In this document: one piece after another, positions 7,027 through 50,202 of the stretch | Layout of the letters: the number at the start of each line of letters is the position of its first letter | Position numbering within the stretch: the first letter of the stretch is position 1 | Source: Octopus vulgaris | Lineage: Eukaryota | DNA: 64,000 bases | NCBI GenBank assembly: GCA_951406725.2 | Contig: OX597826.1 | Span: 36,146,001 to 36,210,000 of the forward strand | Reading direction: 5' to 3' | The notes under the pieces: model-generated | The model's input: only the letters and a program-made list of their open reading frames with translations | Database searches by the model: none | What the model was told of the DNA's origin: nothing | Position numbers and translations under genes: made by a program

Positions 7027-7355
7027 TACAGTTCTATATTTAAGAGATGAGGAATTATGTACATTATTTACATTATTTACATTTGACAGATATTTGTCCT
7101 CATCTTGTTTGTTGTTAACACAACGTTTCGGCTGATATACCCTCCAGCCTTCATCAGGTGTCTTGGGGAAATTTCAAACCTGAGTTTTCATTCCTAAGGT
7201 ATTTTTCGATGTTATTATTATTATTATTATTCAGGTCACTGCCTGGAATTGAACTCAGAATCTTGGGGTTAGTAGCCCGCTCTCTTAACCACTATGCCAT
7301 ATACCCGTGGTTAAGAGCGCGGGCTACTAACCCCAAGTTCAATTCCTAGCAGTGA

Positions 7356-7399
<44 letters not shown>

Positions 7400-7555
7400 G
7401 TAATAATAATAACTTCGAAAAATACCTTAGGAATGAGAACCCAGGGTTCAAAATTTCCTCAAGACACCTGATGAAGGCTGGAGGGTATATCAGCCGAAGT
7501 GTTGTGTTAACAACAAACAAGATGAGGGCAAATATCTGTCAAATGTAAATAACGG
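7027..7555. mobile_element. Fold-back pair of tRNA-head/HHR PLE-derived elements (copy A on -, 7027-7310; copy B on +, 7307-7552)
   Basis: Long inverted repeat whose arms join at a shared GTGG (7307-7310). Diverged TSD AAATTAGCAATGGTAC (7014-7029) / AAATTAGCCAGGGTAC (7556-7571), 14 of 16 identical. Confidence 0.85.
7117..7162 (-). ncRNA. Minimal type-I hammerhead ribozyme motif (intact core)
   Basis: GACAC-CUGAUGA-A-GGCUG-GAGGGUAUAU-CAGCC-GAAA-CGUU^GUGUU. Stem I GACAC/GUGUU, stem II GGCUG/CAGCC, palindromic ACGU in place of helix III, GUU cleavage triplet. Confidence 0.85.
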
Positions 7556-8014
7556 AAATTAGCCAGGGTACTTATTCCTGGCAAATTGGCAATGGTACCA
7601 ACCCAAAGTGTGGCAGAGTAAGACCAAATCTGAAACAACATGGTGGCAAAGCAAACTTCTGGATGACACCACCAAACTAGCAGAGAGAAATGGCGGAGGG
7701 AAGAGAGAGAGAGAAGTGACTTGCAAACTGCATGCTCGTACAAGTGTTGTCAACTGAAAGCTGCGCATATTGGACACCAATAGGTTCATGAGAAGAGAAT
7801 GCACACAAGAGCTGAGAAACCCAAGCAAAATTTCTTGGAGCAGTTTACTCTTTCCAAGGTGGATGAGGGCACAAACTTCAATGGCTGTTGTATTCCTGTG
7901 AGAAGCAGTGGGACCCAGGTATTATTATCTTTGAAAGAAATAACAATAGAGGAATCACCCACAGATCCAGTAATTAATAGGATGTGGGCCTTGTTTGTTA
8001 CCCATCCCATAAAT

Positions 8015-22686: not shown

Positions 22687-23443
22687 CATATACATAAATA
22701 TGCCTGTATTTATGCAGATATGTAAATAGGAACAAAGTCCAGCAATCAATTTAGCTTTTAACCCAGATTCTTGTTGTTCTTAAGTTAATGGAACTACTAA
22801 GAATGAGACTTGATTTTTTTTGCAATGGAAATCTCTCGTTCATGAAATTTATGGAAAAATGCAAGAATATTTGGCTAAAATATTATTTTCTAAAATCAAC
22901 CAGAATAACTAATGGAAAAATATTGAACTGTAAAAGTACAACAGAGATACGTTTGCAGATGTTTATGCTAAAATGTACTTTAATCTAGGTCAGCAGTAAT
23001 TTTTGTTGAGTCTCAACGGAATGAATTTTCCTGTGCAACAACCATATGTTTGTGCTTGTTGAAACCCCTAGCAGAATCTTTGGTCATATGGGAACATGTT
23101 GGTGATATTTGTGATCAATTGTTTGGATAAATAAATTGGAAATATATAAAAATACAATAACATATAAAAGGAACATTATTTACATCATTTACATTTGATG
23201 GATATTTGTCCTCATCTTGTTTGTTGTTAATACAACATTTCGGCTGATTTACCCTCCAGCCTTAATCAGGTGTCTTGGGGAAATTTCGAACCTCCGTTCT
23301 CAATCTTAAGGTATTTTTTAATGTTATTATTATTATTATTATTCCGGTCACTGCCTGGAATTGAACTCAGAATCTTGGGTTTAGTAGCCCATGCTCTTAA
23401 CCACTATGCCATATGCCCATGGGCATAATAATATTAATAATAA

Positions 23444-23674
23444 GGGGGGCAAATTGGCAGAAATGCTAGCATGCCAGGTGAAATGCTTAGTGGTATTTCG
23501 TTTGTCTTTATGTTCTGAGTTCAAATTCCGCAGAGGTCGACTTTGCCTTTCATCCTTGCAGACTCGATAAATTAAGTACCAGTTATGCACTGGGATCGAT
23601 GTAATCGACTTAATTCCTTTGTCTGTCCTTGTTTGTCCCCTCTATGTTTAGCCCCTTGTAGGCAATAAAGAAAT
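23444..23674 (+). mobile_element. SINE family M
   Basis: TGGCAGAAAT...GAGTTCAAATTCC head and central GACTTTGCCTTTCATCCTT...GATAAATTAAGTACCAG; inserted in (AAT)n. Confidence 0.85.
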
Positions 23675-24565
23675 AATAATAATAATAATAATAACATCAA
23701 AAAATACCTTAGGAATGAGAATTGAGGTTTGAAATTTCCCCAAGACACCTGATGAAGGCTGGAGGGTAGATCAGCCGAAACAAGAAACAAGTTGAAGACA
23801 AATATCCGTTAAATGTAAATAATATAAATAACTAGCATTAAAGACCCCGTCGTTGCCGGGTCATAGTGCTAGTGCATGTATATATGTGTATATATATGTG
23901 TACATCTATATATATACATCTACACATAAAATACAAAATACAAAGTTATATCTTGATATCGCTAGTGATAACAATACTCAAAATATATAACAGAGTGGAA
24001 TTGTTAGCCCGTCTCTTCTAATTTCAATCAATTGTATCTTGTCCTCCCTCTTGTATAGAAGTGTGGCTACAATCCAGCCTACCTCTACTTCTGGCGGGGG
24101 AGGGCATTTTAAATTTTTTTCTGGGACATCCTACGTCCAAGATATAAAGGTAAGAATAAAATATTTCCACTTTGCAAGTTCGAGTCGAGTACTCCCTTGC
24201 ACGCTCCGTTGACTCGAACCTTGCTTCTATTGTGGCGAATTTACTGCCTCTGATTAGATATCTTTCATAGTCGCACCAAGACACTTTTCGAAAGTGCTTT
24301 CCTCCATGTGTTTAAATCTTCTTTCTTCTCAACATTGTATACTTTATAGACAGTAGTCTTTTCTTTAATTTAATTTTTTATTATCCATCTTGACTATTCC
24401 ATTTCTGCACGCTAATTTTATTTTTAATTTATTCCCATTCATGTGAAACCTCTTATTGAAGTTCAAGTCATTGATGCAATTTTATACAAATTGCTATTTT
24501 TACTTTTGTTATGTTACGATGATATTATACTTTAGTTTGATTTTAATTATTACTTACTACATATA

Positions 24566-27297: not shown

Positions 27298-28200
27298 GTA
27301 ATAATAATAATAATAATGATGATAATGATGATGATTATGATGATGTTGATGACGATGTCAATGAAGTCGACAACAACAACAACGACAAAGATGCTGAAAC
27401 AAAAACCCAAGTCAAAATGAAGAACTTGTACATTACAAAGCAGACTGCATATTAAATGCAAGCATAGAATTTTTGCTTCTGTGGCAGCAACTCTGTCTCT
27501 GGAATGGTGTAAATTATCAAGATTTTTCATAGCTGTTCCAAGTATTATGACAACCACAACTAATGTTAATGGAAAATGAATGATTTGCAATATGTTTCAG
27601 CAAGTTTAATGTGTTGTTTGCATGGAAGCCAGTTTAATACAATTGTATATGTTAAAGCATTATAGCTACCTCTTAGCTTCCGATTTAAATATTTTTTTCT
27701 ATATGTAGCATCTCTTGCAGAGTGCCAAATTTACCAGTATCTAATCCTTTCTCCACCTCCAAGTGATAAATTTTCCGAGTTCATGGTAAAAGAGTGGGGT
27801 TTTGGGTGGGGGGAAAAATTCTAGAATTTAGAAAAAAAGAAATCTGGGTTAAAAGCTAAAATCCTGAAGCAATCATGGCTCTGAATGTTGAACTGTTTAA
27901 AAATAATACAAGGCACAAGAGAAATGGGAAAAAGAACAGGCATTATGGTAACAATCAAAGTTTAGAGGAAAGATGACATGATGGGCATTTTTGGCAAATG
28001 AGGAAGAGGCAGCAGGTGAAGAATGCTTTGTGTCGTCAATAATGGCAACATGAGAGGGAAGGTTGTGAATAAGGTGATGTAGTCGTTGGTGGTGTTGTCT
28101 TGCACCCAGGTCAGTCCTTATAGAGTAGGCCAATAACAAACAGTGGGTTGAGGCCTGATCCACAAAGTCTTCTTCCTACTTACATTATGTTTGCATCTCT

Positions 28201-28432
28201 ATTTCTTTATTGCCCACGAGGGGCTGAACACAGAGGGGACAAACAAGGACAGACAAAGGGATTAAGTCGATTATATCGACCCCAGTGCGTAACTGGTACT
28301 TAATTTATCGATCCAGAAAGGATGAAAGGCAAAGTCGACCTCGGCGGAATTTGAACTCAGAACGTAGCGGCAGATGAAATACCACTAAGCATTTCACCTG
28401 GCGTGCAAACGATTCTGCCAGCTCGCCGCCTT
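28201..28432 (-). mobile_element. SINE family M, well-preserved copy
   Basis: Minus strand GGCGGCGAGCTGGCAGAATCG...GAGTTCAAATTCCGCCGAGGTCGACTTTGCCTTTCATCCTTTC...GGGCAATAAAGAAAT. Confidence 0.9.
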
Positions 28433-42234: not shown

Positions 42235-42304
42235 AGCATAGGGCATAGTGGTTAAGAGTGTAGGCTACTGACCCCAAGATTCCGAGTTTGATTCCAGGCA
42301 GTGA

Positions 42305-42370
<66 letters not shown>

Positions 42371-42553
42371 CAACATCGAAAAATAGCTTAGGAATGAGAA
42401 CCCAGGTCTGAAATTTCCTCCAAACACCTGATGAAGGCTGGAAGGTCTATCAGCTGAAACATTGTGTTAACAACAAACAAGATGAGGACAAATATCTGTC
42501 AAATGTAAATAATGTAAATAATGTACATAATAACTCATCTCTGAAATATAGAG
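42235..42553 (+). mobile_element. Solo tRNA-head/(AAT)n/HHR element (copy E), SINE-like insertion
   Basis: Perfect 39-bp direct repeat at 42196-42234 and 42554-42592. The element begins at the tRNA-like 5' end. Confidence 0.9.
42423..42468 (+). ncRNA. Minimal type-I hammerhead motif (near intact)
   Basis: AACAC-CUGAUGA-A-GGCUG...CAGCU-GAAA-CAUU^GUGUU; the helix III palindrome is broken (ACAU instead of ACGU). Confidence 0.75.
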
Positions 42554-48975: not shown

Positions 48976-49353
48976 TAGTTACAAAATTCCTTGGTTAGCA
49001 AGGCAGCTGTTATATACAAGGACATTAATATACTGTAGCTGAATATGAGATCATTACATATTGTGTAGAATTGTTATATATGATACATAATTTACATTAT
49101 TTACATTTGACGGATATTTGTCCTCATCTTGTTTGTTGTTAACACGTTTCAGCTGATATACCCTTCAGCCTTCATCAGGTGTCTTAGGGAAATTTCTCAT
49201 TACTAAGGTATGCTTTGATGCTTTTACTATTAAGGTCACTGCCTGAAATTGAACTCAGAATCTTGGGGTTAGTAGCCTGCACTCTTAAACACTACACCAT
49301 ATGCCTGTGGGCAATTATGGAGTGAATTTTAGGGCTTATAAATCTAATATTTT

Positions 49354-50052
49354 TCAATCTTTCCTTAATACCAGTTCCCATATGCTGCTCGTATCTGTAC
49401 TCGGTCTGCTTAGAAGGTTGTTATGTCCTAGCATATGTGCTGCTTCTTTAAGTTTTCGTATTTTCCAGTGGTGTTCTTTACTCTTTACTCTCTTACTCTT
49501 TTACTTGTTTCAGTCATTTGACTGCGGCCATGCTGGAGCACCACCTTTAATCGAGCAACTCGACACCGGGACTTATTCTTTTGTAAGCCCAGTACTTATT
49601 CTATCGGTCTCTTTTGCTGAACCGCTAAGTAACGGGGACATAAACACACCAGCATCGGTTGTCAAGCAATGCTAGGGGGACAAACACAGACACACAAACA
49701 CACACACGCATATATATACATATATACGACGGGCTTCTTTCAGTTTCCGTCTACCAAATCCACTCACAAGGCTTTGGTCGGCCCGAGGCTATAGTAGAAG
49801 ACACTTGCCCAAGGTGCCACGCAGTGGGAATGAACCCGGAACCATGTGGTTGGTAAACAAGCTACTTACCACACAGCCACTCCTTATTTTAACTTCATCC
49901 CACGGGAGTGGTCTCCATTTTTCCATACATGATCAGCTAAACCCAATTTATCAATATCTCCTTGTGTCACAGATTTGCAATGTTCCTCTACCCTTATTTT
50001 TAGGGGGGGGGGGGGCGGCGGAAATTTTTCGCCTTTGTATAACCTACCACAG
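49354..50052 (-). pseudogene. PLE GIY-YIG endonuclease C-terminus, frameshifted and split by a SINE
   Basis: SCGRLYKGE..PLKIRVEEHCKSVTQGDIDKLGLADHVWKNGDH / PWDEVKI / [SINE 49477-49884] / KEHHWKIRKLKEAAHMLGHNNLLSRPSTDTSSIWELVLRKD* fits the Penelope EN pattern CG..YiGeT.r.Lk.R..EH...S.lA.H...H...W.......E..w..Rk.kEa. Confidence 0.85.
49477..49884 (-). mobile_element. SINE family K, best-preserved copy
   Basis: Minus strand AGGAGTGGCTGTGTGGTAAG...CCGGGTTCATTCCCAC...GACTGAAACAAGTAAAAGAG with a (TAAAGAG)-like tail; CpGs largely retained. Confidence 0.9.
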
Positions 50053-50202
50053 CTGATGAAGGCTGGAGGGTATATCAGCTGAAACATGTTAACAACAAAC
50101 AAGATGAGGACAAATATCCATCGAATGTAAATAATGTAAATAATGTAAATAATGTGCATGATTCCTCATCTCTTAAATATAGAACTATGTTATATATGAT
50201 AT

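Follow-up and report, generated by a model that had tools for sequence, protein, structure and literature searches.

A Penelope-like retroelement of Octopus vulgaris with a tRNA-derived A/B-box module, a putative internal Pol III promoter, in its terminal repeat

The window analysed here, a stretch of 64,000 nucleotides of Octopus vulgaris DNA, contains on its minus strand a dead copy of a Penelope-like element (PLE) whose pseudo-LTR (pLTR) opens with a tRNA-derived module carrying A and B boxes, and this module is probably an internal Pol III promoter, from which the RNA would start six bases before the tRNA-like sequence. The copy belongs to a real, family-wide variant within a known class of elements, in which, as the preliminary description had proposed, the module is fixed in the pLTR ahead of a minimal type I hammerhead. 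A farther-reaching and more tentative reading is that Pol III might transcribe the whole 2.65-kb unit for the reverse transcriptase (RT) and the endonuclease (EN), a captured tRNA-SINE promoter having replaced that of Pol II, TTTT having been purged, and the terminal repeat multiplying, tens of thousands of times over, as a SINE of the element's own making.

Anatomy of the insertion in the window

Positions marked + or - refer to the start of the tRNA-like head, whose +1 is window 49306, where the preliminary description had put it. The segment 49086-50187 is one 5'-truncated insertion of Penelope/Poseidon type, interrupted by a SINE and provided with an inverted arm and a 14-bp target-site duplication (TSD). 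The two copies of the TSD (50188-50201 and 49072-49085) had already been recognized as such, and their 14-mer recurs nowhere else on the strand concerned in the 64-kb window. Read from 50187 to 49086, it consists of an inverted partial repeat, an EN fragment split by the SINE, the head, a decayed (AAT)n tract, the hammerhead and the tail. The inverted arm (50053-50187, plus strand), extending from the hammerhead core to the long tail end (about +150 to +267), is 92% identical to the direct arm over 105 nt, in agreement with the terminal inversion noticed earlier, and lacks the same 3 nt. The 5' part of the GIY-YIG EN (49885-50052, minus strand) and its C-terminus (49336-49476, minus strand) are separated by an abundant host tRNA-SINE (49477-49884, minus strand; 128 head matches in 1 Mb), foreign to the PLE and correctly read before as a later insertion, which has no TSD and has replaced about 7 target bases. 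The peptide pieces first quoted from this fragment are encoded there, with 50% identity over 50 aa to the PLE protein P0001 (E 2e-14), which disposes of the objection that they might not stem from a PLE; in the profile comparison that had been suggested, the Pfam GIY-YIG model missed these and the family's other EN pieces, and the assignment as EN comes from motifs and from the relatives P0001-P0004.

The minus strand does carry a TGA at 49356-49354, but this is a mutation of the copy and not, as had been thought, the end of the coding region: the family ORF ends at a TAA (49338-49336), and the distance from stop to head is 29 nt in the family instead of 47 nt. The family stop codon is overlapped by a TATA-like motif (49335-49342, minus strand), about 28 nt before G-6 (49312, minus strand), the base that copy junctions suggest to be the 5' end of the family RNA and that lies within a short palindrome (-7..+5). 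The head (49232-49306, minus strand; +1..+75) has a decayed cloverleaf, and its A box (49289-49299) and B box (49245-49256), on the same strand, are decayed too; the box sequences initially given as the family form are CpG-decayed variants and not the majority form, and those of the window copy have decayed further. There follow on the minus strand a remnant of the (AAT)n tract (49217-49231), which is clear in the family and nearly gone here, the site of the family's first in-frame ATG (49198-49200), 5' of the hammerhead, the minimal type I hammerhead (49142-49182) and the 3' part of the pLTR up to its short end (49086-49141, about +236). The position of the hammerhead was right, but in both hammerheads of this copy the 3 nt that include the cleavage triplet are missing. 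The window copy, whose 3' part has 88.6% identity to the family, is dead: it is frameshifted, prematurely stopped at 49354 and devoid of a cleavage triplet in either hammerhead.

Other copies of the family lie in the same window: a clean solo repeat from the head on, with an unusually long target duplication of 39 bp (42236-42550), and two head-to-head insertions (7030-7561 and 23173-23831), the second of them broken by another SINE that has a second copy at 28200-28430. A second hammerhead-like layout could also be made out by eye 5' of the intact one, at about +98..+136 of the pLTR (window 49206-49185, partly deleted); it comprises a stem, a short hairpin, GAAA and a closing stem, its broken core contains the ATG of the ORF, and it is possibly the relic of a tandem ribozyme.

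The family, its coding unit and its terminal repeat

The majority sequence of the family, built from 90 loci, spans 2883 nt. Walking upstream, long copies were found to open with the same repeat (the unit measures 2650 nt), and the proposed 5' extension of the consensus did yield a full RT-EN reading frame, a single ORF of 834 codons from the first ATG. The 834-aa product has a PLE N-terminus, the DKG motif, an RT (RVT_1 match with E 5e-8 on a natural piece of the ORF) and a GIY-YIG-type EN with CCHH, two Cys of which lie inside the GIY-YIG core, and it lacks a CX2-5CxxC linker finger, which are the features given for Penelope/Poseidon in the accessible text of PMC8557442. The repeat shows what is expected of the pLTRs of EN-bearing (EN+) PLEs, namely a minimal type I hammerhead, the ORF start, an optional tail of 30-40 bp, inverted arms and a TSD. 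Structural comparison added little, with a pLDDT of 40 for the AlphaFold model of the EN region and weak RT matches only in a PDB sequence search; membership in the Penelope/Poseidon clade is well supported.

Since the ORF starts inside the repeat, with its ATG after (AAT)n and before the hammerhead, the head occupies the position of the element's own promoter, and the module also heads the 5' repeat of long copies, preceding the ORF start (L068, L082). According to the sections available of PMC8557442 and PMC6765202, the pLTR is the place where PLEs keep their promoter.

Is the order seen in the window a chance adjacency? A 381-nt query running from EN to tail gave 5817 candidates, and all 40 that were scored match across the EN-head junction (83-87% identity). 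A search with RT DNA only, used to avoid selecting for the head, gave 30 loci, of which 24 (the query's own locus included) have the head directly behind the EN; of the other six, one shows the junction in an inverted arm, one stops after the first five bases of the head and four are broken before the EN end, and no headless version of the family was found among these 30. The order endonuclease, tRNA head, (AAT)n, hammerhead is family-wide. The family was present in 15 of 100 evenly spaced 10-kb stretches. Coverage per Mb amounted to 11.7 for heads, 17.2 for hammerhead segments, 2.0 for EN and 0 for RT segments (inverted arms being counted twice), from which the whole genome would hold repeats in the tens of thousands. 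Among selected long segments, identity to the majority sequence has a median of 92% and a maximum of 96%. No diagnostic substitution separates 38 short from 70 EN-linked repeats, and they are therefore taken as one family; a SINE lineage of its own, without ORF, was not found among them, the SINE-like unit being the pLTR itself. Relatives at 57-75% identity exist in other assemblies, a first metagenome scan gave no match, and sequence words of the family occur in runs of six organisms, from which no range is claimed.

In the majority sequence, the head has perfect A and B boxes, 33 nt apart, the tRNA-like spacing of a Pol III type 2 unit, within a broken cloverleaf. Among 30 host tRNA genes (representing six isotypes only) it is closest to tRNA-Arg, with an alignment score of 55 against a mean of 20.5 and a maximum of 32 for 200 shuffles. 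Neither a tRNA nor a hammerhead was called in the element by ARAGORN and Rfam, whose models do not match the family hammerhead either, and the tRNA origin rests on the boxes and the tRNA-Arg alignment. The head is 64-73% alike to the heads of other host tRNA-SINEs, and we infer that it was captured from an older SINE. The more specific idea of a free minimal tRNA-(AAT)n SINE as the source did not hold, because no such SINE was seen in 1 Mb of random DNA, where all 14 head matches at 83% or more lie by hammerhead-region sequence. An A and B pair within 800 nt behind the match occurs in none of 80 metagenome PLE loci, 76 of which come from two related assemblies and which represent few families, and the second PLE family of this genome, of Neptune type, has CCAAT and TATA-like motifs instead. 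That family (L139, L251-L280) is younger, with 96-98% identity among the top matches and a 753-aa part of a majority ORF, and the CCAAT boxes and the TATA-like motif of its 3' region adjoin TA repeats. Elsewhere in the genome (L361-L390), several host tRNA-Lys copies are followed by a T run and then by a shared sequence resembling the 3' part of the abundant SINE, which suggests tRNA-SINE chimeras.

As for the ribozyme, the cleavage triplet has its exact majority form in 44 of 106 anchored family matches. Retrozyme-like tandem arrays with hammerhead cut sites at the unit borders were not observed, copies being dispersed or inverted. Their 3' ends fall at about +230-236 or +259-269, that is, 55-90 nt beyond the cut site, which lends no support to ribozyme cleavage as a step in making the short RNAs; the hammerhead cut is likely needless for insertion. 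For PAc of the anole, the accessible text of PMC11167929 traces a two-site tail to internal RT priming and reports that hammerhead mutants still insert. Further recurrent 3' ends lie in the ORF N-terminus (about +388, +427 and +501; L392-L420) and may be extra internal priming sites.

Start of the RNA and the polymerase involved

Where copies begin bears directly on where their RNA would begin. Among head segments reaching +10 from random, window and hammerhead-picked loci, 36 of 48 stop in -7..+10. The proportion is 3 of 12 for the next 18 nt (Fisher P 0.002) and 13 of 61 for the previous 18 nt; two fold-backs were re-scored from -17 to -7 in these counts, and the arms of one insertion are not independent. 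At loci picked by the ORF N-terminus the pile-up (7 of 18) is not significant (P 0.41). In a separate sample, the first 50 of the 243 occurrences of an exact head 45-mer, 45 copies begin at -8..+9 with a sharp left edge and five run upstream, one with an internal deletion (L463) being counted among the latter. Copy 5' ends are thus spread over 17 nt. The junctions are sharper: five head-to-tail junctions with different ORF breakpoints (L064, L073, L396, L417, L439) join precisely at G-6; in four of these, one to nine additional A precede the join, an additional G is seen in none, and two or three further junctions resume at -5/-4. Nine copies fold back on the palindrome -7..+5, from which it follows that the cDNA had ended in its outer arm. 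Taken from these junctions, G-6, which lies 13 nt before the A box, is likely the first base of the RNA, and such a spacing between start and A box is usual in tRNA-type promoters. A further pile-up of ends at +102..+105 proved to be an artefact of the 5' majority sequence at the (AAT)n edge. At three loci (L064, L078, L439), ORF-internal segments end in 6-9 A and the next repeat then starts from G-6, as if RT had jumped onto oligoadenylated, prematurely ended family RNAs.

The search for TTTT terminators was set as a test before the majority sequence existed. The sense strand of 2883 nt contains no run of T4 where about 5 would be expected (P 0.008 on shuffling bases, 0.02 on permuting synonymous codons and 0.0025 on drawing codons by third-position frequency; P 0.019 in a repeat test keeping protein and codon usage). 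The absence of G4, considered as a counter-argument, is unremarkable (P 0.29) and expected from codon usage. Control PLE ORFs have 7 T4 runs in 2259 nt, 3 in 1371, 8 in 2136 and 4 in 1251, single LINE copies of the same genome are near expectation, and one Tc1 ORF of 894 nt has none. In the random sample, open frames of considerable length from other retroelements (LTR-type, RTE-like, other LINEs, L1/Tx1-like) were met at L094, L100, L122 and L177; the last three served as T-run controls and L094 was left out. The deficit is partly general, since other PLE loci, pooled, show 154 T4 runs against 238 expected. T4-creating variants are not depleted among copies, as expected under neutral decay. 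Downstream of the host tRNA genes, a run of at least four T occurs within 45 nt in 25 of 30 cases, and in 10 cases the first such run has just four T. The absence of T4 is a suggestive, not a decisive, sign of Pol III transcription. Three raw RNA runs of a related organism were mapped on L082, where the repeat is covered about 300-1700 times in each direction and the ORF mostly fewer than 10 times. The reads are equal on both strands (the library is possibly unstranded), 90-92% extend into unrelated flanks, and no RNA start or end site was called in the three runs on this locus; they fit passive transcription of embedded copies, and neither show nor exclude a Pol III RNA.

A fixed start of the RNA at a tRNA-type promoter appears to us reasonably probable. 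RT would prime inside such an RNA at two tail sites, as it does in vitro for anole PAc, and would copy back to the first base, G-6, whereupon the cDNA would join the target, fold back on the palindrome or jump to a different RNA of the family. The SINE-like solo repeats of about 250 nt that make up the bulk of copies would arise when priming takes place in the first repeat, and EN-bearing copies, that of the window included, when it takes place in the second; with its promoter inside, every solo copy would remain open to transcription. The least certain step is a single Pol III transcript spanning the entire 2.65-kb unit. The translation of an uncapped RNA is a difficulty, and the protein may instead come from Pol II read-through; in the portion of PMC10886601 at hand, Kojima holds Pol III to be too weakly processive for autonomous elements.

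Initiation near -6 could also be due to a Pol II promoter on the TATA-like motif, the tRNA head being a captured passenger, which we regard as rather unlikely. The motif, which overlaps the stop of the unit upstream, lies 28 nt before G-6, a Pol II transcript would solve translation, and the CCAAT and TATA-like motifs of the second PLE family offer a parallel in the same genome, as do, in the parts of their descriptions available, the intron-bearing or TATA/Inr-type pLTR promoters of Penelope, Chlamys-3 and Pen2a. However, the 45 heads of the 45-mer sample that begin downstream of the motif are for that reason without it, jumps at G-6 bring no extra G (a weak point, which depends on how PLE RT behaves at caps), and no account would be given of the missing TTTT or of boxes that stay intact while the cloverleaf is broken. 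If, on the other hand, the RNA had no fixed start, the palindrome -7..+5 might stop or self-prime RT on read-through RNAs and the head would be inert. The strongest local hairpin (-17..+13, the strongest of 1000 nt) does share the edge of the copies, nine fold-backs occur at the palindrome and the RNA reads resemble read-through; palindromes at pLTR 5' ends, those of rotifers among them, and at inversion junctions are known in other PLEs from the available text of PMC3846280. Against this, the hairpin is no more stable than shuffles (z -0.66), direct jumps to G-6 involve no fold-back, and the second-ranked hairpins of the EN region are not marked by any similar edge, truncations there being scattered over 0-640 nt. 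Moreover, RT meeting a hairpin in its template would be expected to halt at the 3' foot (+5..+10) and not past the 5' arm, and we hold this explanation to be improbable.

Two entities might also be at work, a Pol III SINE made of the tRNA head and a PLE tail that parasitises the PLE, and a Pol II PLE that merely acquired one of these SINEs. There are about six heads to each EN segment, the excess over RT segments is larger still, clean solo copies with TSDs exist (such as that at 42236-42550), and short copies are slightly less diverged (4.4% vs 6.4%, in samples picked differently); nevertheless, the uniformity of short and EN-linked repeats, the identity of the SINE-like unit with the pLTR, ORF start included, and the lack of headless loci among the 30 picked by RT make it very improbable.

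Relation to known elements and significance

The octopus family resembles the EN+ PLEs PAc of the anole (PMC11167929), Pen2a of rotifers (PMC3846280) and Penelope of D. virilis, as far as the accessible descriptions go, in its single ORF with RT and C-terminal GIY-YIG/CCHH, in having the ORF start and a hammerhead in the pLTR, in its two 3' ends about 30 nt apart and in its inverted 5' arms and variable TSDs. Unlike in them, the pLTR begins with an A/B-box module of tRNA origin and (AAT)n, whereas the promoters described for those elements are TATA/Inr or intron-overlapping; the ATG precedes the whole hammerhead, and the sense strand lacks TTTT.

The head could be covered by work on octopus tRNA retroposons that Ohshima and Okada reportedly published in 1994. 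With tRNA-derived SINEs the family shares an A/B-box tRNA head, copies starting at the head and a very high copy number, whereas its 3' part is the partner's own repeat and not a LINE tail, its insertions are inverted in the PLE manner and no separate lineage was found. A Pol III promoter derived from a small RNA also sits in the terminal repeat of TRIMp3 (Cassandra, Helenus, Ajax), where, in the sections seen of PMC10886601, it is proposed to come from a SINE insertion. TRIMp3 are, however, short non-autonomous LTR elements with PBS/PPT and TSDs of 4-5 bp, features that the octopus family, a coding PLE with variable TSDs and inverted arms, does not show. Sm-alpha of Schistosoma likewise has a Pol III-type promoter followed by a type I hammerhead (accessible portions of PMC6765202 and PMC8490949), but it has no ORF and forms tandem units cut by the ribozyme, whereas octopus copies are dispersed and end past the cut site, and the octopus unit is the pLTR of a coding element. 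The non-LTR retrozymes of animals are short hammerhead-bearing derivatives of PLE pLTRs as well, although they are defined as tandem repeats and no tRNA head or Pol III promoter is described for them in the available text of bioRxiv 2026.07.22.740005 and PMC7761336.

The literature search, with most subscription papers and preprint supplements out of reach, found no description of a PLE with a tRNA promoter; PMC4209133 makes no mention of tRNA or Pol III, and the accessible part of PMC13282606, which lists 190 Penelope-like families, does not describe the octopus structure. Pol III promoters in retroelements are described in the consulted sections of PMC10886601 for short non-autonomous passengers, the autonomous partners of TRIMp3 having to use Pol II. 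If the reading given here is true, a coding PLE with a tRNA promoter would break the rule that autonomous elements use Pol II, would show how an element can come to produce a SINE of its own, and would pose the testable question of how an uncapped 2.6-kb RNA is translated. The fixed junctions at G-6 provide an in vivo record of the points at which reverse transcription in PLEs comes to its end, folds back or jumps.
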